Positions 1 to 52,372 of a stretch of DNA of 64,000 nt are shown piece after piece. Positions within the stretch are counted from its first letter, which is position 1; the number at the start of each line of letters is the position of its first letter. Below the pieces are notes generated by a model. It was not told where the DNA came from and searched no databases. It saw only the letters and a program-made list of their open reading frames with translations. Both the position numbers and the translations under genes were made by a program. Source of the DNA: Chlorobiota bacterium (lineage in GTDB: Bacteria; Bacteroidota; Bacteroidia; Bacteroidales; JAADGE01); contig JAADGE010000055.1 of NCBI GenBank assembly GCA_013152535.1, positions 466-64,465 of the forward strand. Direction: 5' to 3'.

Positions 1-1618
1 TAAAATAACAAATTTTACATTGAGCAATGATGAGCTGACAATAAATTTAGGAACAATTTTACCGCAAAGCACATTAGATTCAATATCTGTTTTTTATCGA
101 GGCGTACCGGACGCAAACGGTTTTGGGTCATTTGAACAAAGTACACATAACGGAGTACCGATTGTTTGGAGTTTATCGGAACCATACGGTGCTAAAGATT
201 GGTGGCCATGCAAACAAAGTTTGGATGATAAAATTGACTCAATTGACGTTTATGTTACAAATCCCGAAGCATACAAAGCGGCAAGACGGATTGCTTATTT
301 CCGAAACTGTTTCGGGAGGAATGAAAACGGCACACTGGAAACATCGACATCCTATAGCTGCCTATCTTATTGCAATTGCCGTTACAAATTATTCGTCATA
401 TTCTGATTATGTAACATTAACAACAGGAGAAAATATAGAAGTACTGAACTATGTTTATCCTGAAAATTTAACATCTGCTCAAAATAATACACCAAATGTA
501 CTGGATGTTATTCAATTATACAGTGATTTGTTTATTCCTTATCCGTTTGCTGATGAAAAATACGGACATGCACAATTTGGATGGGGCGGCGGAATGGAAC
601 ATCAAACAATGAGCTTTATGCACGGTTTCAGTCATCATTTAATGGCTCACGAATTAGCCCATCAATGGTTCGCGGCGACTATGTTACTTGCGGAAGTTGG
701 CATGATATCTGGCTTAACGAAGGTTTTGCAACTTATCTTGACGGAATGACCAATGAACATAATTTAAATGACGACGGAGTAAGTTTTGATGATTGGAAAC
801 AAGACAGAATTAACAGTATAATATCTAAACCGGACGGTTCGGTTTATGTTACCGATACAACAAGCGTTAACCGAATTTTTAACGGACGATTATCCTATGA
901 CAAAGGGGCAATGGTTTTGCATATGTTGAGAAAATATATCGGTGACGATGCTTTTTTTAACGGAATTACAAATTATTTGAACGATTTGGGTAACGGATAT
1001 GCACGTACTTCTGACTTACAATCGCATTTGGAGCAAACTTTCGGGAAATCACTGCAAGATTTTTTTGACGATTGGTTTTACGGCGAAGGATACCCGATTT
1101 ATACGATTTATTTTTCTCAAAATCAGAATAAAGATGTTACGGTTACGATGAATCAAACACAGTCGAATAATTCCGTTGATTTTTTTAATATGAAAATCCC
1201 GCTTAAGTTCTTAGGTGTCGATAAAGATACTGTTATTTGGTTTGATAATAATGTTAACGGAGAACAATTTAATTTTCATCTTGATTTTTTGGTTACTGCT
1301 GCAATATTTGATCCTAATCACGATATTATTTCCGGCAGTTCAACAGTGTTAAAAATTGATACATTTGATAAAGCAAATAAAGTTTTTGTTATCCCGAATC
1401 CTGCAAGAAATAAAATAACGGTTACTTTTCTTGAAAAAATAATCCCGGAAAAAACCATAATCTGTAATAATACGGGAAAGATATTAAAATCATATTCAAA
1501 AAGTAAAGAAAGTAACTATAAATTTGAATTTGACATTTCCGATTTACCTTCGGGAATGTATTATATTTCTTTTTATGAAGACGGGAAAAACATTACTAAA
1601 AAGTTTGTAAAAGATTAA
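1..1618 (+). pseudogene. M1-family zinc aminopeptidase (aminopeptidase N-like) with T9SS C-terminal sorting domain. The 5' end lies outside the window, and the gene is disrupted by two frameshifts.
   Basis: Three overlapping ORFs tile one protein: 20-406 (frame 2), 123-749 (frame 0) and 581-1618 (frame 2). Frame 0 carries GGMEH (a GxMEN-like motif) and HELAH (codons 651-665). The sequence GDYVTCGSWHDIWLNEGFATY continues in frame 2, so the HExxH-x18-E signature only forms if 2 nt at 672-673 are removed. The C-terminus (IPNPARNKITVTF...GMYYISFYEDGKNITKKFVKD) resembles a T9SS CTD. Confidence 0.85.
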
Positions 1619-1637
1619 CAGAATTTGATGATATTTT

Positions 1638-1645
1638 TATCTTTG
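1638..1645 (+). promoter_or_regulatory. Bacteroidota -7 promoter box (TATCTTTG) upstream of ribE
   Basis: Matches the TAnnTTTG consensus and lies 23 nt before the ATG at 1668. Confidence 0.5.
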
Positions 1646-1667
1646 CACAAATTTAAAAAAAAAGATA

Positions 1668-2264: not shown

Positions 2265-2282
2265 AATAAATCATAAAATTTT

Positions 2283-2318
2283 AAAAGCCCCTTTTTTCAA
2301 CGAGAAGGGGCTTTTTTT
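2283..2318 (+). terminator. rho-independent terminator after ribE
   Basis: The stem aaaagcccctt / aaggggctttt is followed by a T-run. Confidence 0.75.
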
Positions 2319-2355
2319 AAGCAGTTTTATTAATTTGATATTATAAAAATAAAAT

Positions 2356-2394: not shown

Positions 2395-5300
2395 ATGAGT
2401 AAGAAGTTTCAGGAATATAAAGGATTAGATTTATCGCAGGTAAATAAAGATATTCTGAAAAAGTGGAAAGAAGAAAATACATTCGAAAAAAGTATTACTT
2501 CAAGAGAAGGAAATCCTGAATTTATATTTTATGAAGGTCCGCCGTCTGCAAACGGTATGCCGGGTATTCATCATGTTATTTCCCGAACACTTAAAGATGC
2601 TTTCTGCCGATACAAAACCTTACAAGGTTTTCAGGTAAAAAGAAAAGCCGGTTGGGATACGCACGGACTACCTGTTGAACTTGCCGTAGAGAAAAAACTT
2701 GGGATTACAAAAGATGATATAGGAACAAAAATTTCCGTAGAAGAATATAATACTACCTGCCGTAAAGAAGTGATGAAATATACGGCACAATGGGAGGATA
2801 TTACAGAGAAAATGGGTTATTGGGTTGATATGAATAATCCGTATGTTACTTATGATAACAAGTATATTGAAAGTGTTTGGTGGCTGCTTAAGGAGTTGTA
2901 TAACAAAGGCTTACTTTACAAAGGCTATACCATTCAACCATATTCGCCGGCAGCCGGTACAGGATTAAGTTCCCATGAATTAAATCTTCCCGGTTGTTAT
3001 CGTGATGTAAAAGACAGTACGGGTATTGCTCAATTTAAAACTGTTCGAAATGAAAAATCGGAATTTTTATTTGAAAATGTTGATACCGATTTGTATTTTT
3101 TAGCTTGGACAACAACACCTTGGACATTACTTTCAAATACAGCATTAGCAACCGGAGCAAAGATATCATATTTAAAAATAAAAACTTTTAACCCGTACAC
3201 CGGAATTTCGGTAACGGTAATAATGGCTAAAGATCGTTTCAGAACATTATTTCCCGAGAAAAATGAAGAGTTAAAATTTGAAGATTATACTAAAGGAGAT
3301 AAAAACATACCGTATAAAGTTATCGGAGAATATAAAGGAAAAGACCTTGCCGGAATTTCATACGAGCAGCTTTTACCCTACAAACAACCCGAAGACGGAG
3401 ATGCGTTTAAAGTTTTAAACGGCGATTTTGTTACTACCGAAGACGGAACCGGAATTGTGCATATAGCTCCGAGTTTTGGTGCTGACGACTATTTTGTTGC
3501 AAAGAAAAACGGCATAGGTTCTTTGACGTTGGTAAATAAGAAAGGTGAATTCGTTGAGGGTGTCGGAGAATTCAGCGGGCGACCGGTAAAAAATGCCTAC
3601 GATCCGTCAATTCCGGAAAATACTCCGAGTGTTGATATTGATATTTTAGTAAAACTGAAACAAGAAAATAAACTTTTTAAAAGCGAAAAATACGAACATT
3701 CTTATCCGCATTGTTGGCGAACCGACAAGCCTATTTTATATTATCCGTTGGATTCTTGGTTTATCAAGTCTACTGCAATGAAAGACAGGATGCTGGAACT
3801 GAATAAAACCATAAACTGGCAACCGCCGGCAACAGGTGAAGGTCGTTTCGGGAAATGGTTGGAAAACTTAATCGATTGGAACTTATCTCGTTCAAGATAT
3901 TGGGGAACACCGTTGCCGATTTGGCGAACTGAAGATGCTTCGGAAGAAATTTGTCTCGGTTCTTTGGAAGAATTGAAAACAGAATCGGAAAAAGCCGTAA
4001 AAGCCGGTTTTATGAAAGAAAATCCCTTAAAAGATTTTGTTCCGGGTGATTTCTCAAAAGAAAATTATCTGAAATTTGATATGCACCGTCCGTATGTTGA
4101 TGAACTAATTTTAGTTTCTCCTTCCGGTAAAAAAATGTATCGCGAAGCCGACTTAATTGATGTATGGTTCGATTCCGGTTCAATGCCTTATGCTCAAATG
4201 CACTATCCGTTTGAAAATAAAGAAAATTTAAAACATGCTTTTCCGGCTGATTATATTGCCGAAGGTGTTGACCAAACACGCGGCTGGTTCTTTACGCTTC
4301 ACGCAATATCAACAATGTTATTTGATTCCGTTGCGTATAAAAATATTATTGCAACCGGTTTACTCTTAGATAAAAACGGTGTAAAAATGTCAAAACGTAT
4401 CGGAAACGTAGTTGACCCTTTCAGCACAATCGAAAAATACGGTTCCGACCCTGTTCGTTGGTATATGCTGACAAATTCACGACCTTGGGATAATTTAAAA
4501 TTTGACCTTTCCGGAGTTGATGAGGTAAAACGGAAATTTTTCGGAACTTTGTATAATACCTATTCATTCTTTTCATTATATGCAAATTTGGACGGTTTTA
4601 AATATGAAGAAAAAGAAATTCCGCTTAACGAAAGACCCGAAATTGACAAATGGATTATTTCTTTATTAAATACATTGATTAATAAAGTTCAAAATTCGTT
4701 AGATAATTACGAACCTACAACGGCAGGCAGATTAATTCAAAATTTTGTTATTGATAATTTGAGTAATTGGTATGTTCGCTTAAACAGAAAACGTTTTTGG
4801 GGACAGGAGTATAATACGGATAAAATTTCTGCTTATCAAACCTTATATACTTGTTTGGAAACTGTTGCAAAATTAATGTCACCGATTGCACCGTTCTATT
4901 CAGAACAATTATTTTCGGATTTGAATGCCGTTTCCGGAAAAAATGTAAATTCCGTACATCTTTCAAATTATCCGAAATATAATGCAGCATCAACAGATAA
5001 AAAACTTGAAGAAAGAATGGAACTTGCACAGCAAATTTCTTCACTGACTTTAAGTTTAAGGAGAAAAAGTAAGCTGAAAGTAAGGCAGCCGCTGCAAAAA
5101 ATTATGATTCCGATATTGAATGATGAATTTAAAAAACAAATTGAAGCCGTAAAGGATATAATTTTAACCGAAATTAACGTTAAAGAAATCGAATACCTTA
5201 AGGACAGCAGCGGAATTATTGTTAAAAAGTTAAAACCGGATTTTCGAGTAATGGGAAAAAAATACGGTAAATTTGTAAAACCTATTTCTAAATTGCTGTC

Positions 5301-5760
5301 TGAATTTTCACAAGAAGACATTTTAAAATTTGAACAAAGCGGAAATGTTGTCCTTAATATCGAAGGAGACGAAAAAACAATAACCATTGATGAGGTTCAG
5401 GTTGTAACAGAAGATATTCCCGGATTATTGGCTGCAAATAAAGGAACTTTAACGGTTGCTTTGGATACGGAAATTACTAACGAATTAAAGTCGGAAGGAA
5501 TAGCACGCGAGATTGTAAATAAAATTCAAAATATCAGAAAAGATTCCGGATTTGAAGTTACGGACAAAATAAATATTGATATTGAAAGTAATGAACCGAT
5601 TAATAAAGCAATTAATAAATACGAAGATTATATTAAATCTCAGGTACTTGCTAATAAAATAAATATAAAAGACAGCCTGAATCATAATGAAGAAGAGTTT
5701 GAAAAAATAGAAATTGATGAAAACCTTTATGCTAAGGTTTCAGTAAATAAAATTCAATAA
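2395..5760 (+). CDS. ileS: isoleucine--tRNA ligase
   Basis: Class I aaRS motifs are present: PSANGMPGIHH (HIGH-type) and VKMSKR (KMSKS). The product is long (about 1121 aa). The ORF-track start at 2368 is a TTG, so ATG 2395 (MSKKFQEYKG) is the more likely start. Confidence 0.95.
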   Translation: MSKKFQEYKGLDLSQVNKDILKKWKEENTFEKSITSREGNPEFIFYEGPPSANGMPGIHHVISRTLKDAFCRYKTLQGFQVKRKAGWDTHGLPVELAVEKKLGITKDDIGTKISVEEYNTTCRKEVMKYTAQWEDITEKMGYWVDMNNPYVTYDNKYIESVWWLLKELYNKGLLYKGYTIQPYSPAAGTGLSSHELNLPGCYRDVKDSTGIAQFKTVRNEKSEFLFENVDTDLYFLAWTTTPWTLLSNTALATGAKISYLKIKTFNPYTGISVTVIMAKDRFRTLFPEKNEELKFEDYTKGDKNIPYKVIGEYKGKDLAGISYEQLLPYKQPEDGDAFKVLNGDFVTTEDGTGIVHIAPSFGADDYFVAKKNGIGSLTLVNKKGEFVEGVGEFSGRPVKNAYDPSIPENTPSVDIDILVKLKQENKLFKSEKYEHSYPHCWRTDKPILYYPLDSWFIKSTAMKDRMLELNKTINWQPPATGEGRFGKWLENLIDWNLSRSRYWGTPLPIWRTEDASEEICLGSLEELKTESEKAVKAGFMKENPLKDFVPGDFSKENYLKFDMHRPYVDELILVSPSGKKMYREADLIDVWFDSGSMPYAQMHYPFENKENLKHAFPADYIAEGVDQTRGWFFTLHAISTMLFDSVAYKNIIATGLLLDKNGVKMSKRIGNVVDPFSTIEKYGSDPVRWYMLTNSRPWDNLKFDLSGVDEVKRKFFGTLYNTYSFFSLYANLDGFKYEEKEIPLNERPEIDKWIISLLNTLINKVQNSLDNYEPTTAGRLIQNFVIDNLSNWYVRLNRKRFWGQEYNTDKISAYQTLYTCLETVAKLMSPIAPFYSEQLFSDLNAVSGKNVNSVHLSNYPKYNAASTDKKLEERMELAQQISSLTLSLRRKSKLKVRQPLQKIMIPILNDEFKKQIEAVKDIILTEINVKEIEYLKDSSGIIVKKLKPDFRVMGKKYGKFVKPISKLLSEFSQEDILKFEQSGNVVLNIEGDEKTITIDEVQVVTEDIPGLLAANKGTLTVALDTEITNELKSEGIAREIVNKIQNIRKDSGFEVTDKINIDIESNEPINKAINKYEDYIKSQVLANKINIKDSLNHNEEEFEKIEIDENLYAKVSVNKIQ

Positions 5761-5775
5761 TTTAACAGATAAGTC

Positions 5776-6168
5776 ATGTCAAACAAAAGTAAACTAGAAA
5801 AATCGCGTTATTCTGATGAAGAATTACAGGAATTTAAGAAGATTATCGAACACAAACTCGAAAGAGCACGAAAAGATTATCAATTATTGAGCAGCACCCT
5901 TTCACATGAAGGCTCTAATGATATTCAGGACACTTCACCGACTTTTAAGGTCTTGGAAGAAGGCGCAACAACTTTGTCAAGAGAACATACCGGACGATTG
6001 GCACAGAGACAACTTAAATTTATTTCTCATTTGGAAGCCGCATTGGTTCGTATTGAGAATAAAACATACGGAATTTGTCGAGAAACCGGAAAATTAATTT
6101 CAAAAGAACGATTAAGAGCTGTGCCTCATGCAACTTTGAGCATTGAAGCAAAAAAAAATCAGAATTAA
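5776..6168 (+). CDS. TraR/DksA-family regulator (C-terminal YGICRETGKLISKERLRAVPHATLSIEAK)
   Basis: Coiled-coil N-terminus with a DksA-like C-terminus. Only one Cys is present, so this is a non-C4 (zinc-less) variant. Confidence 0.7.
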   Translation: MSNKSKLEKSRYSDEELQEFKKIIEHKLERARKDYQLLSSTLSHEGSNDIQDTSPTFKVLEEGATTLSREHTGRLAQRQLKFISHLEAALVRIENKTYGICRETGKLISKERLRAVPHATLSIEAKKNQN

Positions 6169-6182
6169 TATAAACTGTAATA

Positions 6183-6788: not shown

Positions 6789-6811
6789 ATTGACTTACTG
6801 AAATTTTTACG

Positions 6812-6836
6812 GGACGGATTTTTCCGTCCTTTTTTG
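6812..6836 (+). terminator. rho-independent terminator after lspA
   Basis: Hairpin ggacgga-tttt-tccgtcc followed by a T-run. Confidence 0.75.
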
Positions 6837-12618: not shown

Positions 12619-12715
12619 TGTTTTGTTTTTTAAATGTTAAATAATAGTTTAAACATTAACATTTGAGTCGATAAAGTTAATGCTTTTTTATTTTTTATAC
12701 AAACTAATTTTATTT

Positions 12716-13917: not shown

Positions 13918-13920
13918 TTT

Positions 13921-18900: not shown

Positions 18901-19855
18901 GAGCCGATGTACCGGCAAATTCAATAATGGCATCTGCTCCGAGACCGGCATCAAAAGTTCCGGCATTATATGTTATATCACCTCTTATTTTTATTGTTTG
19001 GTCAAATTCATTAATTACATCAGGAGAACTTGTTCCGTTATCGGAAAAAAGTAAATCACCTAATATTGTCAGAGTAAGATTCGGTAATTCTCTTTTGCCT
19101 GTACCGCTGAATGTTAAATTATTAACTTGTGTAATTTGACTTAAAACACAGTAATTTGTACTTCCTCCGAATTCAACTGTTCCGCCGCTTGCGGAGAAAA
19201 AATCTTCATAAAAGCCGGCAGGCAGACTGCCTCTTTCCGAATATAAAGTTCCGGTACCGGATACATTTCCTATTCGATTTCCGAAAGTTGTACCGACATC
19301 AAGTGTTCCCAGTATTTCTGTAGTATATGCCGATATATAATTAACAGCTGTTGTAACTCTGTCTCCGGTATATATTCTTACTCTTGCACCGTCAGGAATA
19401 TCGGGTAAGCCTAAAGAAGCAGGAAGTACCCATGTACCTGTTCCGTCATCAACACGCCATGTATCAGCTGTATGCCAATCTAAATTTGTAAAAGGACCGC
19501 CGCCGGCTACACCTTTTGAAACATACAAAGGTACTTGATCGGGTATGGCTCCGAGAAATGTTGAACCGTCAACACCGGCAGTATAATCACCGCTTATGTC
19601 AACATCCGATACATTAGAATAATCGAAAATAAGTTTTTTATTGGTTTCATCAAATTTACTGACATTACTGACATTATCGTATTTTACCCAATTTCCGGTT
19701 CCGTCGTTTAACAATTTTGCCGTTATGTAATCATAAACATCATAAGGTGCAGTAACTTTAACATCATTTTCATTATAATAAAATTCAGTTGTTCCGGAAA
19801 AATCCGTGAAGCCAGTTGCTGTTAAAACCCAATAATATTGTAAAACGTTATCCAT
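15920..19855 (-). CDS. C-terminal fragment (1311 aa from the first ATG) of a giant T9SS-secreted surface protein
   Basis: Two LPEWL(T/S)FN...TFSGIP cadherin-like/He_PIG-type repeats (about 16190-16760) and a T9SS CTD (FNIYPNPTTGRFFIAN...GIYFIKIQNETKTLSFKIILQK). There is no signal peptide, and the reading frame stays open upstream of the ATG into the preceding ORF. Confidence 0.85.
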   Translation of the reverse strand: MDNVLQYYWVLTATGFTDFSGTTEFYYNENDVKVTAPYDVYDYITAKLLNDGTGNWVKYDNVSNVSKFDETNKKLIFDYSNVSDVDISGDYTAGVDGSTFLGAIPDQVPLYVSKGVAGGGPFTNLDWHTADTWRVDDGTGTWVLPASLGLPDIPDGARVRIYTGDRVTTAVNYISAYTTEILGTLDVGTTFGNRIGNVSGTGTLYSERGSLPAGFYEDFFSASGGTVEFGGSTNYCVLSQITQVNNLTFSGTGKRELPNLTLTILGDLLFSDNGTSSPDVINEFDQTIKIRGDITYNAGTFDAGLGADAIIEFAGTSAQNILGTSSFTGTNAFNHLTMNNSSGLTLSRSVDINYNLNFTSGVIHTTTTNILTLENTNETVVTGAGSGNYVDGPLNKNIIIGGKFLFPVGNNTRYGYVILDNIDQSNYWQAEYYNHNPLNDGYDPANFLAPIKVVSENEFWRINGPASSSSYVELRWDASSGVSSVATERDDLRVAEWISANSRWEVSHSTATASGSATDGTVTTNPTSPALNGNHIFTLTSQLLITNTWEGNISTVWSDAGNWSAGTVPTGSSDAIIPTNPVGNRFPEINVAAHCHKLDIQSSATVTVNAAKSLTLNGDFTNDGMLLLKSPADETASASFIDNGTTAGSGTVHIERYFSANKFHYVSSPIQSGGNASSDLFTQSNSSGNFNPNFYVYDETFDLDGNAGTAPAGAFNSDNLVSGWVYAYPNQTTDDPMKTKTGYAFYTDENQLITFIGTPNTGDISINGLAYTNNDQVSCSLPNYYDGWDLVANPYPSAIDWDVIKSSRTNLDDGIYVWDGTQYSSYANGVKGGNLSLSNEIAPMQAFFVHATANSAGFSLHNSNRVHSTQNYLKSPNKNNANEDIPNFIRLKMQANGYSDYAVVYFKSNATSGFDGDFDALKLFSNIASVPHIYSISQKDKTPLSINVLPENSMADLIVPIAVKIEQAGTYTISADKFNFKNNHVYFIDKQKNVEIYLNENALNNYSFYCDAGIISDRFELHFYKNNAPEALNQIKDTTVFEDRELNFILPKNSFIETDKNDKISGYYAKLENDNDLPEWLTFNNKTLTFSGIPKNEDVGILTIKVFAFDKMGATGYQEFNLSVINTNDAPFVENSIPDMETYTSELYSYTIPNNIFNDIDFGDLLTYSAQSENGNQLPEWLSFNTETKTFSGIPENAGVFQIKVKATDIAGANTSDIYTLTVKGSSDISNVSESDFNIYPNPTTGRFFIANSKPVELHYIITDITGSIIKEEKSFTNKEEINLTGFGAGIYFIKIQNETKTLSFKIILQK

Positions 19856-19923: not shown

Positions 19924-22900
19924 TTAAAATAAGATAACCCGTTGTACTTGTATTGTACTTGTATTTTGTGTAATTGTAACAATTGCCGGTGTATATTTAT
20001 TTAATGCACCGCTGACTGATCCTACGGGAAAGGTAAAAGTTCCTGATCCTGACGGGAAGAGTTTTTTAACACCGTAGTCAGTAAATGAAACATTTGTTCC
20101 GATCATATTATTTATTCCGAACGGATTTGCTTCTTGTATTCGGCAATTAATACCGAGTGTTAAAATATTTCCGCCAATATTTAAAATTCCGGATTCTAAC
20201 TTTAAATATTCTGAAATTAACGGTGTATTTCCTACGGGAAGCACAATGCCGTTTCCGTTATTTATTGTTAATTTACCGTATGTTCCGCTTCCGGTCATTG
20301 TTTGTTGTGATGTTCCGACTAATGAAATTCCGTCTTCAATACCCGTTCCTCCGTAAGTATGTACGGCATCATTATTAATATTTCCGTAAACTTGAATTTC
20401 ATTGGCATTGTCGTTTAATGTTCCGGATTGCAGATCCAATATATTATCAATAACAATATCGGTCGTTCCGGAAGCAAGATTTAGGTTTGCTGTGTTTTGA
20501 TTTGTTAAATTCCAAAATGTTGTATTTCCGTTAATTTGCTGGTCGGAATTATTTTTAAAATAAGTTGTATTACCTCCGGCTGTGAATGTTCCTGCATTTG
20601 TAAAATCTCCGTAGCAATTCAAATCTAATCCGTTTGTTTTAAATTCGGTTCCGCCTTGAATATTTAATTCTCCGTTAAGAGTTAAAGGAATTGTCCACAT
20701 TTTTGCTTTCGGATTATTGGTACTTGTATTATCAAGGGTTAAATTTTGTAATGCAACGGTTGAATAAATACCGAATTCTTGATTTGCGGGTGTATCTCCG
20801 CTACCTAATGTAATTGTTGTTCCGGCTGATAAATTTGTTGTTTCGGGATCAAGATATAAACTTGCAAAAGTCGGATTTGTTTGTTGACGGACAATACTTA
20901 AACTACCGGCTGAATGTGTAAATGAACTTCCTGTATTTAAGATTTCAAAGACACCTCTGTTTTCTTCCGGAGCTGTATTTTTTCCGATAATAACAGTTCC
21001 GCCGCTTTGATTATATGTTAAAATTCCTTCGGTACTTGTAAGTCCTCTTCTGATTTGAGAACCGACAATTAATGAGCCGGAAGTTATTTCTAATGTTGCG
21101 TTTCCTGATGCCGAGTATTGAATGTAATTATTTCCGTTTGCCGTAGCCGGGAAATTTGCATCATCCATATTTACAATTCCGCCGCTTATGAGTAATTTAC
21201 CGTCGAGTAAAATTCCTGTATCATCACCTGAAACATTTACTTGTCCTTGTCTGATTTCGAGACAGGAGGAAGACGGGATATAAAAATTATCATTACCGGT
21301 GTTAATGTCAATATTAATTCCGGAATTATTAATTATCAGTGTTCCGTTTTGCAGTTCAACAGATTTCTGAATACCGACACCGTTTGTCGGACCGCCTAAA
21401 TTAAAATTATTATCAAAACTGAAAGAATAGGTTTGACTGTTTCCTTTATTTATAACAAATCGATAAAAATCAGCGGTATTACCGGCTAAAAAAGTATATG
21501 CGGCATTTTGCTCTCCCTGCAATTCCAGAATAGCATTGTTTCCGCCGGTATTATCTGAAAATAAATTGATTGTACCTTCTCTTTGTATCAGGTTTCCGGT
21601 TAAAATAATTTTGTGTTTTAAATTATTCGGACTTGTGTTTAAAACAGAAAGGTAGTTATTTGAAGATTGTGCCTGTCCGTCTCTGATTGTAATGTTTCCT
21701 TTTACCGTCAGTGTTCTGGCTGTACCGTCTGTTGAGAATTCAAATGCACCGTCTCTGTATCCGCCAACATAAAAGTTTCTGTCAACTAAGATATCGCCGT
21801 CTGCATCATTATCTGTTCTTATAACAGCACCGCCGTCAATTTTCATATCCCTTTTTACTTCAATGTCAACAGGAAAAATGAGGATTCTGTTGCCGACACC
21901 GGAAGAAGTATTTCCTTCTATTCTAAGATTCGGATATTCAGGATGATTCGGGAGTACGGTTATACCGTCTGCACGGTCGTGATAATAGAAATAGGCTTCG
22001 GTATTATTTACAAAATCTCCCATATCGGCAATTACTGTCGGGATGTTTGCAGGAGAAACTCTTTCGACAAAACCGCCGCGTCCCGAAATATAATTAAAGT
22101 TATGAGTTTGGGTTTCTTGTACATATACACGCGGATTCCAGGTTGTTCCGTCGCCGTCAAAAATAAGTGCGGCAATATTTATGTTATTGATATCACAAAG
22201 AATGGAGTGGTAGTCTCCGCCGCTGCCTCCGTTTGTGTTTCCTGTATCGTATCCTACACGGGCGATATCACCTGTTTGCGGGTATGTTCCTGTATTTGTG
22301 GAGCTGTTGTGAGATACGGTTGACCATACATTGGGGTCTGACCAATGATTACCTGTCCAACCGTTCCATAAGCGACTGTAGTAAACTCTGACGCTGCCGG
22401 TAAATCGGTTTGCAACACCGGCTGTATAATTTGCTTTTTCAAGTGTAAGCACATCAAAACTAATTCGGTTATTTGATGTATTAATGCTGCCGATTGTTCC
22501 TGATTGAGGTGCACGAGTAAACGGATCTTCATCCAATACTTTCCCTGCAATAAAATTTGCTTCATCCCCGGCATCATCATCAGAGTCATCATATACAAAG
22601 CGATAGATAACCGTCGGTAAAGTTGTAAAATCAGAATGTCCGACTCTCCAGTAATAAGACAGCAGATTTCCGCCGGCTAAATTCGTTGTTTGTAATTCTC
22701 CGTCAACCGGTCTTATTTGAATGTATCCGTCGTCGGTTGAGGCGGTTATACGTATTCTTACCGGTGTATATCTTGCTGTTCCGGTTTGTGTTCCGAGCGG
22801 CAAGCCAAAATCAGTATTACTGCTTATATTTCCGGGAATGTATAATTGAATTCCGCCGTCAGAAGCATTTGCATCGCTGAAAATCATTTTAGTTGTACTT

Positions 22901-28507: not shown

Positions 28508-28576
28508 TTTAAGTAATTTTAGTTTGAAAGGATAAAAGTAATAAGATTTTCGATTTTTTAAATAAATTTTCTTTAA

Positions 28577-28584
28577 TAGATTTG
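28577..28584 (+). promoter_or_regulatory. -7 promoter box (TAGATTTG) upstream of the MscS gene
   Basis: Matches TAnnTTTG and lies 22 nt before the ATG at 28606. Confidence 0.5.
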
Positions 28585-28605
28585 CAAAATAAATAAAAAA
28601 AAGAT

Positions 28606-33571: not shown

Positions 33572-33889
33572 TCAATTATTCATTTGTCTGTCTAAACGCT
33601 CGGCATCTCTTATTCTGCCTTTTAATATATTAATGTAAGTTCTTGCATCTTTCAGATGATAATCGGCATATGCTTTTTGAGCCCAATCTAAAGCGATATC
33701 AAATTTTCCGAATATTTCAGAGGCTAATGCCATATTGTAACAAGCACGACCGGCAATTTTATAATCGGGGTCGTTAACATATTGTTTCCATATATCTGCT
33801 GCATCTTCCCATTGTTTTGCATTAACTTTATATTTTGCATCTTTAAAGTCATCATTTCCTTTAACGTAATAATGTCTTGAAACCCAAAT
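33572..33889 (-). pseudogene. in-frame continuation (105 codons, TPR-like) of the lipoprotein gene downstream of the internal TGA
   Basis: Hand translation of the same frame gives IWVSRHYYVKGNDDFKDAKYKVNAKQWEDAADIWKQYVNDPDYKIAGRACYNMALASEIFGKFDIALDWAQKAYADYHLKDARTYINILKGRIRDAERLDRQMNN*. The span 34618-33572 is exactly 349 codons. Confidence 0.75.
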
Positions 33890-34618
33890 TCAAGTAGGAG
33901 ATATTCTGCGGGCATAGCGTTGTCCGGAAAAATAACCGGCACTTTTAACAGCATCAGCTTGTTTCGGCAGATTGTTTTCAGCTTCTGTTTTTGTTCTGCC
34001 CTTTTTGTCCCAACCTTTGTGGTCAACATAAACGTTTTGGTCAATTATTTTACGATTTACGGGATCGTAAATTCGCCAACCGGCATTTACTGCAATATCA
34101 ATTGAAGCAATGTATTCAGTATAGGTAACATCTTTATTATCTTTTTTTATTGTTTTTTGTTGTGAATCCAAATGTCTTGATGTGTTAGAATCAAAAGTTT
34201 CAAGTAAAATTAAGGCATCAGCAGAATAATTATTACAAATTTGTTTAACTTTTTGCCAATTTAAAGGAGCAGGAAATGTTGCCGCTCCGGTTCCTTTTAA
34301 ATTTAAACCGTCGGGAACGGTAACGTTGAATCTCGGAGAATTTTGTAATCCGCTTACCAAACCGCTGATTGCTTTTTCCGAAGCTTCGCGGTCAACAAAT
34401 ATTTCTTCTCCGCTGATAATTCCTTCTACAACATTGCGGAACTGATTACCGTTTCCTTTTGCCGGTAAACTTCTGTTTGCAACTGCTAAGGTTTTAATAT
34501 TTGCCGGCACAAAAATGTCAGCCGGTTTCAGCACTTTTACAGAAAGTGATTTTGTTTTACAGGAAAAGAACCCTATTCCTAAAATTATTACGAATAAAAT
34601 AATATAGTTTTGTTTCAT
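33890..34618 (-). CDS. lipoprotein, N-terminal 242 codons ending at an in-frame TGA
   Basis: Lipoprotein signal ...GIGFFSC. The ORF stops at TGA 33890-33892, but the same frame continues open (see the next feature). Confidence 0.7.
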   Translation of the reverse strand: MKQNYIILFVIILGIGFFSCKTKSLSVKVLKPADIFVPANIKTLAVANRSLPAKGNGNQFRNVVEGIISGEEIFVDREASEKAISGLVSGLQNSPRFNVTVPDGLNLKGTGAATFPAPLNWQKVKQICNNYSADALILLETFDSNTSRHLDSQQKTIKKDNKDVTYTEYIASIDIAVNAGWRIYDPVNRKIIDQNVYVDHKGWDKKGRTKTEAENNLPKQADAVKSAGYFSGQRYARRISPT

Positions 34619-45630: not shown

Positions 45631-48099
45631 TTATCCTAAATAAACCCGCTTCACCCGTTCCGAAATACCGGAAATAATTTCATACGGAATCGTGTTCAAT
45701 TTTTCGGCAATTTTACTTGCCGGATAATCATCACCGAAAATAATTACTTCATCGCCTTCATCAGCTTCAATGTCCGTAATATCAGCTATGCACATATCCA
45801 TACATACATTTCCGACAATCGGGACTTTTTGCCCTTTTATCAGAACTTCGCCGACACCGTTACTCAATGCACGACTGTATCCGTCAGCATAACCAATCGG
45901 CAAAATTGCAATTCTTGTTTCTCTGTTTGCCGTCCATTTTCTGCCGTAACCTACTGTTTCGCCGTTATGTACCTTTTTAATTTGTAAAATTCGTGTTTTT
46001 AAGGTGCTGACATTCATTAGTTTGTCTTGATTAAAGCCGAAACCGTAAAGTCCGATACCCAATCTAACCATTTCAAAACTTGCTTCCGGAAAACGTTCAA
46101 TACCCGAAGAATTTAGAATATGTCGATCAATCGGATAGTTTAATTCCGCAATAATTTTACTGCTGATTTGTTTGAATTTTTCAATTTGCCGGTTTGTAAA
46201 ATCATCTTTTCCCGGCTCATCGGAAACTGCAAGATGAGAAAAAACTGTTTTGACATAAATTTGCGGATAGTGTTTTAATTTTTGTATCAATTCATCAATT
46301 TCAAAATAACAAAATCCCAGGCGTTTCATTCCGGTATCAATTTTAATGTGTATCGGAATTTTGCCGCTTGCATATTTTTCTGCTTTTTCGGCAAAAGTAT
46401 CTAAAATACCGAAACTGTATATTTCGGGTTCCAGTCGGTAATCAATAATATCCGAAAATCCGTCTTCGTCGGGATTCATAACGATAATATCGCTTGTAAT
46501 GCCGGCAGTTCTTAATTTTACGCCTTCGTCGGTAAATGCCGTACCGAGAAAATCGACTTTATGATGCTGTAAAATTTTGGCAATTTCATAAGTTCCGCTG
46601 CCGTACGACAGGGCTTTTACCATTACCGTAATTTTAGTTCCGTTTTTCAGTAAAGACTTGTAGTAGTTTAAGTTATGAACAAGAGCTTCGAGATTAATTT
46701 CAAGAACCGTGCGGTGTTTTTTTAGTTGAAGAGCATCCGAAATGTCTTCAAATTTAAAGGCACGAGACCCTTTTAAAAGAATATTTTCGTTTCGGAAATT
46801 TTGTTTTGAAAAAGTCTTTAAAAATTGTTCGCTTGTGTGGTAAAAAAAAGATTGCTTAATGTCTGCAAAGTAATTTTTGTATTCGGATACGGCTTTTCCG
46901 ATACCGATAAATTTTGTAATTTTTGCATTTTTTACATATTCGGCTACTTTTTGATACAATACGGCATTTTTAATACCGCTCTGATAAATATCCGAAAAAA
47001 TTAATGTTTTATTTTTATGAACAGATTGATATTCAAGCGTGTCGAGGGCAATTTTCAAAGAAATAAGGTCGGAATTATAACTGTCGTTTATCAGTGAACA
47101 ATTATTGATGCCTTGTTTTTGTTCAATACGCATTTCTACGGGTTCCAGCTCGGCAAATCGACTTAATATTTCTTTCGTAACTATATTACGGGCATATAAA
47201 AACGACAGACAAACCAGTGAATTTTTAACTGATGCTTCGTCAATAAAAGGAATTTGATAATGAACTTCTTTATTTTGATATATAACGGTAATATCGGAAA
47301 CCGATTGTCGTTTTTGTATTTTTTTCAAATATAAATCGGCATTGGTATTTTGTGTTGACCAAGTAAATATTTTTTTAGTATTATAATTATCATTTGTTTC
47401 GATAATGTCCTTTAATTCAGAATAATCGGGAGAATAGATAATTGTATTAACACCATTCATCAACTGTATTTTTTCCTTTGCTTTTTCTGTTTTATCCGAA
47501 AAGTTTTCCTGGTGTGCATCTCCCAAAGAAACGAATATTCCGATGTCGGGTTTTATAACGGCTTCTAATTTTTGCATTTCGCCGATTTGTGAAATGCCGG
47601 CTTCGATAAAAGCAAAATCAAAATCCTTGTTTAACAACAGTAAAGACAAGGGAACACCGGTTTGCGAATTGTAACTTTTAGGACTTCTTACAATCTTATA
47701 ATCATCTTTAAGAAGTTGAAATAACCACTCTTTAACAATCGTTTTTCCGTTGCTTCCGATAATTGCCGTAAGCAGTTTTTTAAATTGTTTTCTGTAATAA
47801 AGCCCTAATTTTTGAAGTGCCGGCAAAGTATCTGAAACTACGATAAAATTTGCGGTTTTTAATATATTAAAAGAGGTTCTCATTTCTGAAACAACAAAAT
47901 TTTTAACCCCTCTTTCGTATAAATCCGGAATAAACTGATGTCCGTCGCGGCTGTTTCCTTTCAGTGCAAAAAAAACTTGTTCGGAAGATGAAGCAATACT
48001 TCTGCTGTCAATTATAATTTCGGAAATAAAAGCGTTTTTATCTCCGATTAATCTGCCGTTTGTAATTTCAGACAGGGTTTTGAGTGAAATTCCGGTCAT
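45631..48099 (-). CDS. bifunctional UDP-N-acetylmuramoyl-tripeptide--D-alanyl-D-alanine ligase (MurF) / alanine racemase (Alr) fusion
   Basis: The N-terminal half is Mur-ligase-like (GSNGKT P-loop). The C-terminal half is an alanine racemase (VKALSYGSG with the PLP lysine context, ...GYADGY...). 822 aa, a fusion typical of Bacteroidota. Confidence 0.9.
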   Translation of the reverse strand: MTGISLKTLSEITNGRLIGDKNAFISEIIIDSRSIASSSEQVFFALKGNSRDGHQFIPDLYERGVKNFVVSEMRTSFNILKTANFIVVSDTLPALQKLGLYYRKQFKKLLTAIIGSNGKTIVKEWLFQLLKDDYKIVRSPKSYNSQTGVPLSLLLLNKDFDFAFIEAGISQIGEMQKLEAVIKPDIGIFVSLGDAHQENFSDKTEKAKEKIQLMNGVNTIIYSPDYSELKDIIETNDNYNTKKIFTWSTQNTNADLYLKKIQKRQSVSDITVIYQNKEVHYQIPFIDEASVKNSLVCLSFLYARNIVTKEILSRFAELEPVEMRIEQKQGINNCSLINDSYNSDLISLKIALDTLEYQSVHKNKTLIFSDIYQSGIKNAVLYQKVAEYVKNAKITKFIGIGKAVSEYKNYFADIKQSFFYHTSEQFLKTFSKQNFRNENILLKGSRAFKFEDISDALQLKKHRTVLEINLEALVHNLNYYKSLLKNGTKITVMVKALSYGSGTYEIAKILQHHKVDFLGTAFTDEGVKLRTAGITSDIIVMNPDEDGFSDIIDYRLEPEIYSFGILDTFAEKAEKYASGKIPIHIKIDTGMKRLGFCYFEIDELIQKLKHYPQIYVKTVFSHLAVSDEPGKDDFTNRQIEKFKQISSKIIAELNYPIDRHILNSSGIERFPEASFEMVRLGIGLYGFGFNQDKLMNVSTLKTRILQIKKVHNGETVGYGRKWTANRETRIAILPIGYADGYSRALSNGVGEVLIKGQKVPIVGNVCMDMCIADITDIEADEGDEVIIFGDDYPASKIAEKLNTIPYEIISGISERVKRVYLG

Positions 48100-48191: not shown

Positions 48192-49166
48192 ATGTTTACA
48201 ATTTCACAATTACAAGATATTATTTCCGAAAAATTTTCGACATTAAATTTTGATAAAAAACCGCAAAGACTATATGAACCGATTGAATATACTTTGGCTT
48301 CGGGAGGAAAACGAATTCGACCGGCATTGGTTTTGGCGGCATGCAATATGTTTTCCGAAAAAATTGAAACGGCAATACCGGCAGCTCTGGCTTTTGAAGT
48401 TTTTCATAATTTTACGCTGTTGCACGATGATATTATGGATAATTCGCCCGTTCGGCGAAATAAAGAAACCGTTCACAAGAAATGGAATAAAAACATCGCC
48501 ATACTTTCCGGCGATGCTATGATGATACAGGCATACGAATTTTTATCCGAGTTACCTTCCGAATTATTAAAAAAGATATTGCCTTTGTTTAATAAAACTG
48601 CTCTTGAAGTTTGTGAAGGGCAGCAATACGATATGGATTTTGAAAAATGCGATAATGTGTCGGAGGAAAAATATTTGAATATGATTAAATTAAAAACATC
48701 GGTATTGATTGCCGCAGCATTAAAAACCGGTGCGATAATAGGAGGTGCAAGTGAAAAAAACGCTGATTTACTTTATGATTTCGGTATTAATATCGGCTTG
48801 GCATTTCAAATTCAGGATGATTTATTGGATACTTATGCCGATACGTCTGTTTTCGGAAAAAAAATCGGAAATGATATTTTGACCGGAAAAAAAACTTTTC
48901 TTTTAATAAACGCCTTACAAAAATCCGGAATAAAGGAATTCGATAAGTTAAGAAATCTTATAAAAAATAAAAAAATTGAAGACGATGAAAAAATAAAATC
49001 AGTTATTCAAATTTATGACGATTTTAATATTAAAAGTTTAACCGAAAACAGAATAAAAAAATACCATAAAAAAGCACTGCAATCTTTAAATTTAGTATCT
49101 TGCGAAAATAATAAAAAACAGATTTCAGCAGAATTTGCCGATATGATAATGAACAGAAAAAAATAG
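48192..49166 (+). CDS. polyprenyl (geranylgeranyl/farnesyl-type) diphosphate synthase
   Basis: Asp-rich motifs LLHDDIMDNS and FQIQDDLLD. Confidence 0.85.
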   Translation: MFTISQLQDIISEKFSTLNFDKKPQRLYEPIEYTLASGGKRIRPALVLAACNMFSEKIETAIPAALAFEVFHNFTLLHDDIMDNSPVRRNKETVHKKWNKNIAILSGDAMMIQAYEFLSELPSELLKKILPLFNKTALEVCEGQQYDMDFEKCDNVSEEKYLNMIKLKTSVLIAAALKTGAIIGGASEKNADLLYDFGINIGLAFQIQDDLLDTYADTSVFGKKIGNDILTGKKTFLLINALQKSGIKEFDKLRNLIKNKKIEDDEKIKSVIQIYDDFNIKSLTENRIKKYHKKALQSLNLVSCENNKKQISAEFADMIMNRKK

Positions 49167-49174
49167 CAGTAAAA

Positions 49175-49747
49175 ATGGAGGAAAATAAAATTCATATTAA
49201 AAACATGGTATGCCCTCGCTGTGTTTCTGCCGTAAAACGAACACTTACCGAAATGCAAATTCCGTTTACGGAAGTAAAACTTGGTGAAGTTGTTTTAGCT
49301 GTTGACAAAAAAGAAATCGACAAAGAACTTTTTGACAAAAAACTTCACAAAATCGGATTCGAACTCATTGATGACGAAAAAAGTCATATCGTCAGCCAAA
49401 TTAAAACCGAAATTATTAAATACATACATTATTCGCCCGATTTAATACGAAAAGTGAATTTTTCGGATTATCTTGCCGACAAAATCGGACATAATTATTC
49501 TTACCTGAGCCGCCTGTTTTCTTCCGTTGAAGTTCAAACTATTGAAAAATACATTATTCAGCAAAAAATCGAAAAAGTTAAAGAACTTCTTATTTATGAA
49601 GAACTTTCGCTTTCGGAAATTTCTTATGATTTGGATTACAGCAGCGTGCAACATCTTTCGCGGCAATTTAAAAATGTTACCGGAATGACCCCGACGGAAT
49701 TTAAAAAATTGGAAAAGAAAAACCGAAGACCTTTAAACGAAATATAA
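49175..49747 (+). CDS. AraC-family transcriptional regulator with N-terminal HMA-like metal-binding domain
   Basis: The N-terminus IHIKNMVCPRCVSAVKRTL carries the MxCxxC motif of HMA folds. The C-terminal AraC HTH reads LSEISYDLDYSSVQHLSRQFKNVTGMTPTEFKK. Confidence 0.8.
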   Translation: MEENKIHIKNMVCPRCVSAVKRTLTEMQIPFTEVKLGEVVLAVDKKEIDKELFDKKLHKIGFELIDDEKSHIVSQIKTEIIKYIHYSPDLIRKVNFSDYLADKIGHNYSYLSRLFSSVEVQTIEKYIIQQKIEKVKELLIYEELSLSEISYDLDYSSVQHLSRQFKNVTGMTPTEFKKLEKKNRRPLNEI

Positions 49748-49837
49748 TTCTGAATTTTGTCCTTTCAATTTTCAATTTTCTGCAAAACTATATAAATCAT
49801 CTCCTTAATTGTATGAAGTTTTTATTTCATACCGGCG

Positions 49838-49845
49838 TAACTTTG
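49838..49845 (+). promoter_or_regulatory. -7 promoter box (TAACTTTG) upstream of copA
   Basis: Matches TAnnTTTG and lies 24 nt before the ATG at 49869. Confidence 0.5.
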
Positions 49846-49868
49846 CCGTAAATAAAAACAATACGATT

Positions 49869-51320
49869 ATGAAACATACATATAAAATAGACGGCATGAC
49901 ATGCGTCGGGTGTGAAACGGACGTTAAGAATGCTTTAAGTAACCTGAATGAAATAAACAAAGTTAAGGTTGACTTAAAAAAATCGGAAGTCGAAATTGAA
50001 ATGTCGCAACACATTTCGCTTGAGAAGTTGCAGGAAACTCTAATGAAAGCCGGTTTGCACTATACAATTCATTTGCCCGGCGATGAGCCCGTTCATAAAC
50101 ACGTTCATAAACAGCATATAAAACAAGTTGATTTTAACGGAAACGGTATTTTTTATTGCCCCATGCGATGCGAAGGCGATAAAACTTATGATAAATCCGG
50201 AGCTTGCCCCGTTTGCGGAATGGATTTAATCGAGCAAAAGCAGGTAAGTACAAAAGCAGAATATACCTGTCCTATGCACCCGGAAATTATTAAAGATGCT
50301 CCCGGTGCCTGCCCGAAATGCGGAATGGATTTAATTCCGAGAGAACCGGAAGAAAGTGAAGAAGATAAAACGTATTTAGGACTGTTAAAGAAAATGAAAA
50401 TTGCGGTAATTTTTACCCTCCCGATTTTTCTTATTGCAATGGCTGATATTTTGCAAAAAAATCCGTTGTTAGATTTGATGAACCAACAAAATTGGAATAT
50501 CGTACAGTTGATATTATCTCTGCCGGTTGTGTTTTATGCAACAAGAATGTTCTTCGAACGTGCTTGGAGGTCAATTGTTACTTGGAATTTGAATATGTTT
50601 ACACTTATAGGAATAGGTGCCGGTGTAGCTTTTATTTTCAGTATTTTTGCATTATTCTTTCCTGATATTTTCCCGGATCAGTTTAAAACTGACAGTGGAA
50701 CGGTATATGTTTATTTTGAGGCAGTTACAGTAATCCTCACACTTGTTCTTCTCGGTCAGTTATTAGAAGCCAAGGCACACAGCAGAACAAGCGGTGCCAT
50801 AAAAGAACTGATGAAGTTGGCACCTACGCAGGCAACGGTAATAGTTGACGGAGAAGAAAAAGTTATTTCAATACACGACATAAAACAAGGAGATTTAATA
50901 CGTGTAAAACCCGGAGAAAAAATTCCCGTTGACGGAAAAATTACCGAAGGCAGCACTCATATTGACGAAAGTATGATTACCGGAGAACCTGTTCCCGCAG
51001 ACAAAACAATAGGCGACAAAGTCAGTTCCGGAACCATTAACGGCAATAAATCATTTGTAATGATTGCTGAAAAAGTCGGGTCGGATACGTTGCTTTCGCA
51101 AATTATAAAAATGGTTAACGAAGCAAGTCGCTCGCGTGCTCCTATCCAAAAACTCGCCGATAAAATATCAAAATATTTTGTGCCGATTGTAGTCCTTATT
51201 GCCGCATCAACTTTTGCCGTATGGGCAATTTTCGGTCCCGAACCGGCTTATGTTTATGCTTTTGTAAACGCAGTTGCCGTTTTAATCATTGCTTTGCTTG
51301 CCCGTGTGCATTGGGATTAG
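49869..51320 (+). CDS. copA: copper-translocating P1B-type ATPase, N-terminal fragment (frameshifted)
   Basis: HMA domain (GMTCVGC), two Cys-rich CPxCGMDL metal-binding modules, TM helices and the TGE actuator motif (ITGEPVP). The frame is lost at 51290-51299, immediately before the expected CPC motif. Confidence 0.9.
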   Translation: MKHTYKIDGMTCVGCETDVKNALSNLNEINKVKVDLKKSEVEIEMSQHISLEKLQETLMKAGLHYTIHLPGDEPVHKHVHKQHIKQVDFNGNGIFYCPMRCEGDKTYDKSGACPVCGMDLIEQKQVSTKAEYTCPMHPEIIKDAPGACPKCGMDLIPREPEESEEDKTYLGLLKKMKIAVIFTLPIFLIAMADILQKNPLLDLMNQQNWNIVQLILSLPVVFYATRMFFERAWRSIVTWNLNMFTLIGIGAGVAFIFSIFALFFPDIFPDQFKTDSGTVYVYFEAVTVILTLVLLGQLLEAKAHSRTSGAIKELMKLAPTQATVIVDGEEKVISIHDIKQGDLIRVKPGEKIPVDGKITEGSTHIDESMITGEPVPADKTIGDKVSSGTINGNKSFVMIAEKVGSDTLLSQIIKMVNEASRSRAPIQKLADKISKYFVPIVVLIAASTFAVWAIFGPEPAYVYAFVNAVAVLIIALLARVHWD

Positions 51321-52372
51321 CAACACCTATGGCTGTGATGGTCGGTGTCGGAAAAGGTGCACAATCCGGAATTTTAATAAAAAATGCCGAAGCTATTGAA
51401 AAAATGAATAAAATTAATGTGCTTATTACCGATAAAACAGGGACACTTACCGAAGGAAAACCTTCGCTTGAAAAACTTATTGCTCTAAATCCCGCTGATG
51501 AAAAAAATTTGCTGATTAAAGCTGCATCTTTGAATACACAAAGCGAGCATCCCTTGGCGGAAGCAGTCGTAAAATATGCAAAAAATGAAAAACTTGATTT
51601 GAAAAATGTTGAGAATTTTGAAGCTGTTGCCGGAAAAGGTGTTACAGGAATCGCAGGTAATGAGAATATTGCTGTAGGAAATTCAAAATTAATGTCGGAA
51701 ATTAAAGCAGAAATCCCTAAAACACTTCAAACACAGGTCGAAACAGAACAAAAGCTCGGAAAAACTGTTTCTTACATTGCCGTAAACAACAAAGTTCTCG
51801 GATTTATTGTCATCAGCGACAAAATTAAAAAAACAAGTCAAAATGCCGTCAAAGAACTTATCGAACAAGGAGTTGAAGTAATCATGCTCACCGGAGATAA
51901 CAAAAATACGGCAAAAGCCGTTGCCGATGAATTAAATATAACAGGCTTTAAAGCAGAATGTTTGCCCGAAGATAAGCTTAATGAAATAAAACGTTTACAA
52001 AATGAAGGTAAAATTGTTGCAATGGCAGGCGACGGTATTAATGACGCTCCTGCATTGGCACAGTCCGACATCGGAATTGCCATGGGAACCGGAACTGACG
52101 TTGCCATTGAAAGCGGAGAAATAACACTTATGAAAGGCGATTTAAACGGTATTGTAAAAGCAAAAAAATTAAGTCATGCAATTATGAAAAATATCAAACA
52201 AAATTTATTCTTTGCTTTTGTTTATAACGTTCTTGGTGTTCCTGTTGCAGCCGGCGTATTATTTCCGGTATTCGGTTTGCTGCTCTCACCGATGATTGCA
52301 GCAGCAGCTATGAGTTTCAGTTCGGTTTCCGTAATCTCAAATTCATTACGATTGAGAAATTTAAAACTTTAA
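51221..52372 (+). CDS. copA: copper-translocating P1B-type ATPase, C-terminal fragment (the real coding part of this frame starts at about 51300)
   Basis: CPCALGLATP, DKTGTLT, MLTGDN and GDGINDAPAL motifs, in a frame shifted by +2 relative to the N-terminal fragment. Confidence 0.9.
   Translation: MGNFRSRTGLCLCFCKRSCRFNHCFACPCALGLATPMAVMVGVGKGAQSGILIKNAEAIEKMNKINVLITDKTGTLTEGKPSLEKLIALNPADEKNLLIKAASLNTQSEHPLAEAVVKYAKNEKLDLKNVENFEAVAGKGVTGIAGNENIAVGNSKLMSEIKAEIPKTLQTQVETEQKLGKTVSYIAVNNKVLGFIVISDKIKKTSQNAVKELIEQGVEVIMLTGDNKNTAKAVADELNITGFKAECLPEDKLNEIKRLQNEGKIVAMAGDGINDAPALAQSDIGIAMGTGTDVAIESGEITLMKGDLNGIVKAKKLSHAIMKNIKQNLFFAFVYNVLGVPVAAGVLFPVFGLLLSPMIAAAAMSFSSVSVISNSLRLRNLKL
51290..51299. repeat. 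perfect 5-bp tandem duplication (tgctt x2) inside copA
   Basis: Read directly: positions 51290-51294 are identical to 51295-51299. Confidence 0.95.

Follow-up and report, generated by a model that had tools for sequence, protein, structure and literature searches.

Four broken genes in a 64-kb contig stretch of an uncultured Bacteroidota member: a case for probable local assembly errors

Within a 64,000-nt stretch (the window) of contig JAADGE010000055.1 from the metagenome-assembled genome (MAG) GCA_013152535.1 (positions 466 to 64,465 of the forward strand), four of approximately 45 genes are broken, namely those for an M1-family peptidase, a giant adhesin-like protein, a DUF6340 lipoprotein and the heavy-metal ATPase CopA. 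All four had been named in an original prediction, and each was confirmed by comparison with homologues. The confirmed events comprise insertions and deletions (indels) of -2, +2, +5, +9 (in frame) and +11 bp, along with a single TGG to TGA change. We hold it to be somewhat better than an even bet (a probability of roughly 0.55) that most of these indels are local assembly or join errors in an uncurated short-read MAG, and not mutations of the organism. This explanation had been listed last in the original prediction, and it is now the best supported one, with the MAG appearing to be an uncurated product of IDBA-UD, an assembler reported to be error-prone. Overall, an assembly artefact plus background is the likeliest account of what was seen. 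The broken genes and the sequence changes considered are as follows:

1..1618, + strand: M1-family aminopeptidase with a type IX secretion system (T9SS) C-terminal sorting domain; N-terminus before the window; three frames, two indels
between 285..286, + strand: M1 lesion 1, 2-bp deletion (TA), from DNA alignment to the relative L083
671..674, + strand: M1 lesion 2, +2 insertion (CG CG) directly after HELAHQWF, from alignment to L083
15920..26529, - strand: giant T9SS-secreted adhesin-like protein, 3,532 aa when repaired, from open reading frames (ORFs), repair and Pfam
19942..19963, - strand: 11-bp perfect tandem duplication frameshifting the adhesin (ATACAAGTACA x2, coding strand); taking one unit out gives a fusion
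19656..19673, - strand: 9-bp perfect tandem duplication in the adhesin, in frame (AATGTCAGT x2 = NVS NVS), an insertion relative to homologues
33572..34618, - strand: DUF6340 lipoprotein, 348 codons, with an in-frame stop; the Pfam DUF6340 match (residues 41-303) runs across the stop
33890..33892, - strand: TGA nonsense codon in the lipoprotein, TGG (Trp) in the relative L084, from DNA comparison
49869..52372, + strand: copA, P1B-type heavy-metal ATPase, 832 aa when repaired, split in two ORFs, from ORFs, repair, Pfam and orthologues
51289..51298, + strand: 5-bp perfect tandem duplication (TTGCT x2) in the CPC motif of copA, transmembrane helix 6, from comparison with relatives
49763..49778, no strand: 7-bp repeat in the spacer between the AraC-type regulator gene and copA, at chance level and not counted as a lesion

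Disabling lesions in four genes

The M1 peptidase gene was compared with 17 homologues at the protein level and, at the DNA level, with L083 (GCA_024277895.1), which is 89.5% identical over 11.6 kb and in which the gene is syntenic. Intact orthologues have 646-650 aa and are 77-87% identical, and the repaired protein from the window matches both Peptidase_M1 and Por_Secre_tail of Pfam. At the first lesion L083 has GCAAGTAACGG where the window has GCAAGACGG (aligned as GCAAG--ACGG); moreover, all 17 homologues carry the motif KAA[S/G]NG, which is one residue longer than a +1 repair would give. The single extra nucleotide originally proposed here is hence in reality a 2-bp deletion, and since the alignment to L083 shows TA to be missing the lesions of this gene form a pair, first -2 and then +2. 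The second lesion, predicted as a duplication of CG, was recovered as such both in the alignment to L083 and against the homologues: HELAHQWFGD is invariant in 17 of 17, and GD continues exactly where the window has the +2. The two lesions are 386 bp apart and their net length change is zero. Once repaired, the protein displays 12 private substitutions at otherwise invariant columns, as against 5-10 in the intact orthologues, and it is closer to the outgroups than is its sister P0121. A sliding identity profile against L083 between the two lesions, run as a test for chimerism, showed no step, with low power at an identity of 85-90%.

The adhesin gene is now split into ORFs of 2,201 and 1,311 aa and contains Pentaxin, He_PIG and Por_Secre_tail domains. 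A repaired segment of 1,200 aa with the junction at its centre was used as a query against 1.84 billion representative proteins. This recovered more than 100 homologues of about 3,000-3,800 aa, many of which match as one stretch straight across the junction; in P0365, for instance, residues 1614-2783 align with query residues 12-1199 at 50% identity. In the local alignment the junction is free of gaps after the removal of one 11-bp unit (TQNTSTTGYLILKPADE versus TQNSSTTAYLIAKAADE), and the same removal restores the full 3,532-aa frame, in agreement with the 11-bp duplication of the original prediction. The in-frame 9-bp duplication, situated 289 bp downstream of the 11-bp one, is a new observation that goes beyond the original prediction.

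For copA the comparison covered nine orthologues of 832-842 aa at the protein level and two relatives at the DNA level. The duplication lies inside the invariant LIIACPCALG motif, where the window has ATC ATT GCT TTGCT TGC CCG and the two relatives have ATT ATT GCT TGC CC(T/C) (as strings, ATTGCTTTGCTTGCCC against ATTGCTTGCCC). Removal of one TTGCT yields an 832-aa CopA that aligns with zero gaps over residues 1-832 to the nine orthologues (79-88% identical) and regains the invariant LIIACPCALGLATP, in agreement with the 5-bp duplication first noted. Relative to the related MAG L002 it is the only indel within the gene, and the repaired protein has 9 private substitutions at otherwise invariant columns versus 6-25 in the intact orthologues. 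Programmed frameshifting was considered from the sequence and dropped: there is no slippery site and the insertion destroys the CPC motif.

Several further features were observed in and around copA. Its His-rich linker contains a 12-bp perfect tandem repeat (CGTTCATAAACA x2 = VHKHVHK, 50090-50113), of which about 0.01 would be expected by chance. It entails no length change relative to the nine orthologues and was accordingly dropped as a further lesion; a templated or conversion-like origin seems likelier for it than an insertion. Upstream of the gene, at 49790-49835, a motif of the form AAACTATATAAATCAT...CTTAATTGTATGAAG is kept in two relatives at about 80% overall identity, unlike the remainder of the spacer; it probably serves the adjacent AraC-type regulator as operator or promoter. 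The 7-bp repeat in this spacer had been put forward as another duplication event. The spacer around it could be aligned neither to L001 nor to L002, and the window contains 15 such repeats against 8.6 expected; lying in DNA that the relatives lack and at a frequency near chance, it provides no evidence of an event. The whole block from 49175 to 64000 carries copA and a gene for cytochrome c together with small hypothetical genes and genes for RND efflux. At the nucleotide level it is 70-81% identical to the MAGs L001 and L002, and these share the block but differ in the genes surrounding it. Judged by this pattern, it looks like a horizontally mobile metal-resistance island.

The lesion in the lipoprotein gene is of a different kind. 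Its closest relative, L084, encodes an intact orthologue of 350 aa and has TGG at the site of the stop, within ISPTWIWVSRHYY / ISPTWIWVSRHYYVKGNDDFKDAK; together with the DUF6340 match that spans the stop, this upholds the nonsense codon of the original prediction. TGA serves as the ordinary stop in four other genes of the window, in which the one in-frame TGA compares with 201 TGG codons, so that a recoding of TGA (genetic code 4 or 25) is excluded. This change is probably one ordinary, real nonsense allele irrespective of how the indels arose, and a single such allele is about the background number expected for approximately 45 genes.

Density, spectrum and age of the lesions

To place these lesions in context we used about 34 kb of the window that could be aligned to four related MAGs at 70-90% identity. 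All clear frameshifting indels within the bodies of coding sequences in this DNA are the window's own and none belongs to the relatives; in the matched comparison, three broken genes in the window are set against none in the relatives. Orthologues that are 10-20% diverged show almost no coding indels between them. The one exception in the aligned DNA is a -2/+2 pair separated by 15 bp (31692-31708) in an intact gene of no known function (31423-32142, - strand) compared with L084; with only 78% identity there, either the two species differ by a compensated frameshift or the alignment itself has produced the pair. As a separate observation, L083 has at 5031-6819 two same-strand genes of 194 aa and 421 aa (CarbopepD_reg_2) that overlap by 62 nt; these may be the parts of a split gene, in which case lesions of this kind would not be peculiar to the window's MAG.

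A systematic scan, in which each perfect tandem unit was deleted in turn and the fusion of two long open arms was the test, uncovered no further lesion in the window. Two ORFs had been considered as additional candidates and were dropped. The first, a 190-aa TonB_C ORF (13345-13917) entertained as a fifth lesion because it overlaps the next gene, proved to be intact with a complete TonB_C domain; the second, a 313-aa ORF without a Pfam match (27746-28687), is intact as well: its orthologue is an outer-membrane beta-barrel protein of 251 aa, and its own ORF start is over-long.

Perfect tandem repeats with 5-bp units are present at chance frequency (94 observed, 90 expected), whereas those with 9-12-bp units number 6 against an expectation of 1.25. 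The pseudogene content of free-living bacteria is usually 1-5%. Four of approximately 45 genes is elevated with respect to this range, if not by much, which speaks for the high density originally claimed, yet the statistical support is modest. Taken together, the repeat counts, the matched comparison and the fraction of broken genes indicate that the individual lesions are real in the sequence and non-random, and lend the density claim moderate support. The related statement that tandem duplications dominate holds for the +2, +5, +9 and +11 insertions. It fails for the first M1 lesion, which is a deletion, and for the 7-bp repeat, which is at chance level.

The lesions are uniformly fresh. At the copA, adhesin, lipoprotein and M1 sites the homologues are intact and read through without interruption, and one change is enough to recover the ORF (two in the case of M1). 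One repair per lesion suffices to give full-length ORFs, including one of 10.6 kb, there is no excess of private substitutions in M1 or copA, the broken genes show no secondary decay, and no older pseudogenes exist in the window. The view that these are recent events and not old decay was therefore well founded; the same facts imply that the lesions are either very young or not biological at all.

This freshness bears upon the proposal of relaxed selection in a host-restricted or enrichment-culture organism undergoing genome decay. Four broken genes in about 45 would be in keeping with it, but the window shows high coding density, short spacers, no insertion sequence (IS) elements and no old pseudogenes that are truncated or carry several lesions. 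Its source seems to be a deep-sea chimney community of free-living organisms, and the near absence of coding indels between the diverged orthologues is likewise not what decay predicts. The dense coding, the lack of IS elements and old pseudogenes and the apparent hydrothermal-chimney origin leave that part of the original prediction unsupported, and we deem genome decay the least probable of the explanations considered here.

The size spectrum of the indels is more informative. Natural bacterial frameshifts are mostly 1-bp indels. The window has approximately 100 coding homopolymers of at least 7 nt, all of them in frame, and no 1-bp frameshift anywhere; none of the four frameshifts is a 1-bp indel, none of the -2, +2, +5, +9 and +11 events lies in a homopolymer, and every insertion is an exact copy of the adjacent sequence. 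Homopolymer base-calling error, as produced by long-read or flow-based platforms, is ruled out by these in-frame runs. A special mutational process of the lineage, such as a mismatch repair (MMR) defect, slippage-prone replication or a duplication-generating repair system, would spread duplications genome-wide, and the excess of 9-12-bp tandem units and the three verified duplications of at least 5 bp in two genes are compatible with it. Nevertheless, the in-frame homopolymers are the opposite of an MMR-deficient signature, 5-bp repeats are not in excess, neither M1 nor copA, once repaired, is enriched in private amino-acid changes, the 12-bp repeat of copA is no insertion, and no other gene across the aligned orthologous DNA is frameshifted. 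The genes mutS and mutL and those for the polymerases lie outside the window. Base-calling error and MMR deficiency fail for one and the same reason, in that both predict +/-1 homopolymer indels and none is found among the four frameshifts. A slippage-prone or MMR-deficient lineage, as raised in the original prediction, is contradicted on these grounds, and we regard any such special process as very unlikely.

The chance that the duplications act as reversible on/off switches, in the manner of phase variation or population heterogeneity with the assembler picking the "off" alleles, appears slimmer still. In its favour, two of the affected genes encode T9SS-secreted surface proteins, and tandem duplications revert more readily than point mutations. 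Against this, none of the sites has a multi-copy simple-sequence tract; each has two copies of a unique 2-11-bp unit, and the homologues have no repeat at these positions, only one copy. Furthermore, the lesions destroy the catalytic CPC of an inner-membrane ATPase and the region of the peptidase catalytic site, which are not typical contingency loci. With no contingency-locus repeat tract at any lesion site, the suggestion of reversible alleles is not borne out.

Provenance of the assembly

The C-terminal M1 fragment of the window is 100% identical to NOZ35445.1 and one polyprenyl synthetase is 100% identical to NOZ35461.1; both are annotated as "MAG: ... [Chlorobi bacterium]" and belong to one 113,923-bp contig common to NCBI and IMG. 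The sixteen accession steps that separate them equal the number of ORFs between them if both halves of the adhesin have accessions. A sister MAG with the same label and a neighbouring accession series (NPA69021.1) is present in IMG metagenome 3300005095, and its NCBI contig is 100% identical to the IMG contig. This metagenome is cited by Hou et al. 2020 (Microbiome 8:102) in a study of chimneys of the East Pacific Rise that used HiSeq 2000 2x100 reads, IDBA-UD 1.1.3 (k 52-92) and MetaBAT2/MaxBin binning, with no assembly-error correction. Accession series and IMG metagenome together lead us to infer that the window comes from this study. IDBA-UD is reported to be prone to local assembly errors (Chen, Anantharaman, Shaiber, Eren & Banfield 2020, Genome Res 30:315; PMC7111523); duplicate sequence can remain at scaffold joins despite overlapping flanks, and 13 such errors were counted in one 1.13-Mb genome. 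If the assignment to the chimney study is right, the source pipeline combines an error-prone assembler with an absence of curation, as expected for an artefact.

We also scanned metagenome contigs for the same population in an independent assembly, using a gapped DNA pattern of the adhesin junction that accepts either allele and the repaired adhesin segment, and these scans found none. The closest other population is 95% identical at the nucleotide level and is represented only by contigs of about 1 kb that fall short of every lesion, and the next is 89.5% identical; neither is the same population.

Origin of the lesions

Join errors could arise in the following way. The de Bruijn graph would break at k-mers shared between genomes or at strain variation, and the resulting pieces would be rejoined by paired-end scaffolding or local assembly. 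If a true overlap were then trimmed a few bases wrongly, trimming too few would leave an exact tandem copy and trimming too many a small deletion, and a short piece between two joins would give rise to a pair of indels a few hundred bases apart. IDBA-UD probably takes the overlap to be trimmed from an estimate and not from an alignment. The proposed mechanism would account for the sizes of the indels, for insertions that copy their neighbour exactly, for the spacing of both pairs (386 and 289 bp), for the zero net change in M1 and for the uniform youth. The observed spectrum, in which sizes are small and arbitrary, insertions repeat the flank exactly and homopolymers play no part, fits an artefact and is unlike biological or base-calling spectra. 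In addition, two of the lesions fall within the best-conserved motifs of the respective proteins (HELAHQWF|GD and LIIA|CPC), and under join errors this could be understood, since co-assembled relatives share k-mers there and graphs branch.

Several points weigh against join errors. Spontaneous insertions of more than 1 bp also normally take the form of short tandem duplications. A pure de Bruijn contig consists entirely of k-mers found in the reads, so that an exact duplication presupposes a step of scaffolding or joining; the chimney study speaks of "contigs" and the window has no N. The lesions were judged from the consensus of an uncurated short-read MAG. Only accessory envelope or efflux genes are struck and no housekeeping gene, although this is a weak argument, with P of about 0.4 under random placement, and the nonsense codon of the lipoprotein lies outside the join mechanism. 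Moreover, 21 kb of the sister MAG from the same assembly pipeline are free of lesions, and its comparison with two independent assemblies gave one to four gap positions over approximately 11.5 kb with no called gene shifted. Finally, the density of lesions here is about 5x the single published figure for IDBA-UD.

A possibility that must be taken seriously, even though we would not favour it, is that the genes recently lost their function in the organism itself, through alleles that are now fixed or predominant in the chimney population. Ordinary pseudogenisation by replication slippage and one G to A transition would then have struck surface and efflux genes that the cell can do without, perhaps driven by drift within a small clonal patch or by selection against surface proteins that are exposed. 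The argument from k-mers and reads favours such alleles, and so does the form of the changes, tandem duplication being the canonical spontaneous insertion and TGG to TGA a canonical transition. Every broken gene is accessory (those for two T9SS cargo proteins and the DUF6340 lipoprotein, and copA in an island about 80% identical to other MAGs) and all the housekeeping genes are intact, while the fraction of broken genes is only moderately above the pseudogene norm. Conversely, genuine alleles would leave several features unexplained: the four frameshifts include no 1-bp or homopolymer indel despite the approximately 100 long coding runs; the spectrum is biased toward insertions, whereas bacteria are usually deletion-biased; the indels occur in pairs 290-390 bp apart and two of the lesions hit signature motifs; every event is of the same young age, and older pseudogenes are lacking; and the loss of a copper exporter is unexpected in a metal-sulfide chimney. 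A burst of duplication-type loss-of-function in the chimney population, in which an insertion-biased, homopolymer-independent process (such as template switching, or the filling-in of staggered breaks during repair) preferentially struck T9SS surface proteins and the copper exporter, would be a more exotic variant, and we judge it improbable.

Other features of the window

The window is AT-rich (about 33% GC) and densely coding with short spacers, and no repeated or mobile elements were found within its 64 kb. Intact housekeeping genes include ribE, ileS, dksA, lspA, hflX and two polyprenyl synthetases, and an aconitase-family gene, a DEAD-box helicase and a murF-alr fusion are likewise intact; envelope and regulatory genes are encoded as well, besides the copper/RND efflux island. 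The NCBI label of the source MAG, "Chlorobi bacterium", looks wrong as a taxonomic assignment. Among the matches listed, the isoleucyl-tRNA synthetase (IleRS) of the window is closest to those of Bacteroidales MAGs (72% identity), and the nearest syntenic relatives are Bacteroidales/Bacteroidetes MAGs. On the strength of the IleRS identity and the T9SS cargo proteins, the organism is to be classed as a member of Bacteroidota rather than Chlorobi.

The murF-like Mur ligase and a complete alanine racemase are fused in a single 822-aa ORF (45631-48099, - strand). In the region 11950-15611 (- strand), a repressor of the BlaI type and a BlaR1 (M56) sensor with a fused M23 peptidase domain are followed by three consecutive small TonB_C paralogs of 190, 220 and 222 aa. 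Polyprenyl synthetase is represented by two separate 324-aa genes within 22 kb (26763-27737 and 48192-49166). The second of these had originally been labelled araC; the true AraC-type regulator is the 190-aa gene at 49175-49747.

Implications and comparison with known systems

The significance of these observations is mainly cautionary. If the lesions are join errors, the split database entries for M1, the adhesin and copA are artefacts (NOZ35445.1 being the C-terminal M1 fragment, and both adhesin halves appearing to have protein accessions), and similar lesions are likely in other MAGs of the same pipeline. If they are real, an uncultured Bacteroidota lineage of hydrothermal vents simply has young pseudogenes of the ordinary kind among its accessory genes. 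In neither case does a new biological question arise; only a genome-wide duplication bias, if supported by reads, would be of moderate interest.

Among known systems, MMR-deficient mutators resemble the window in accumulating several frameshifts in a short stretch, but their defining excess of +/-1 homopolymer indels is absent here. Contingency loci likewise show frame-changing differences in repeat number in surface-protein genes; the present sites differ from them in having two copies of a unique unit, in corresponding to no tract in the homologues and in striking non-surface catalytic motifs too. Ordinary pseudogenes, arising by slipped-strand mispairing or nonsense mutation, share with the window a single disabling event per intact ORF, exact duplications, a G to A nonsense change and a preference for accessory genes, but not its lack of 1-bp homopolymer indels, its preponderance of insertions over deletions, the pairs at 290-390 bp or the equal youth of the events. 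The join errors of IDBA-UD (PMC7111523) differ in that the published cases have unsupported consensus and Ns between overlapping flanks, and not specifically N-free 2-11-bp duplications, and in frequency, with 13 per 1.13 Mb there as against 4-5 per 64 kb here. They nonetheless match the window in concerning uncurated IDBA-UD short-read MAGs, in consisting of small local errors that corrupt protein-coding genes, in including a duplicated flank at joins as a class of error, and in reportedly finding their way into public databases.

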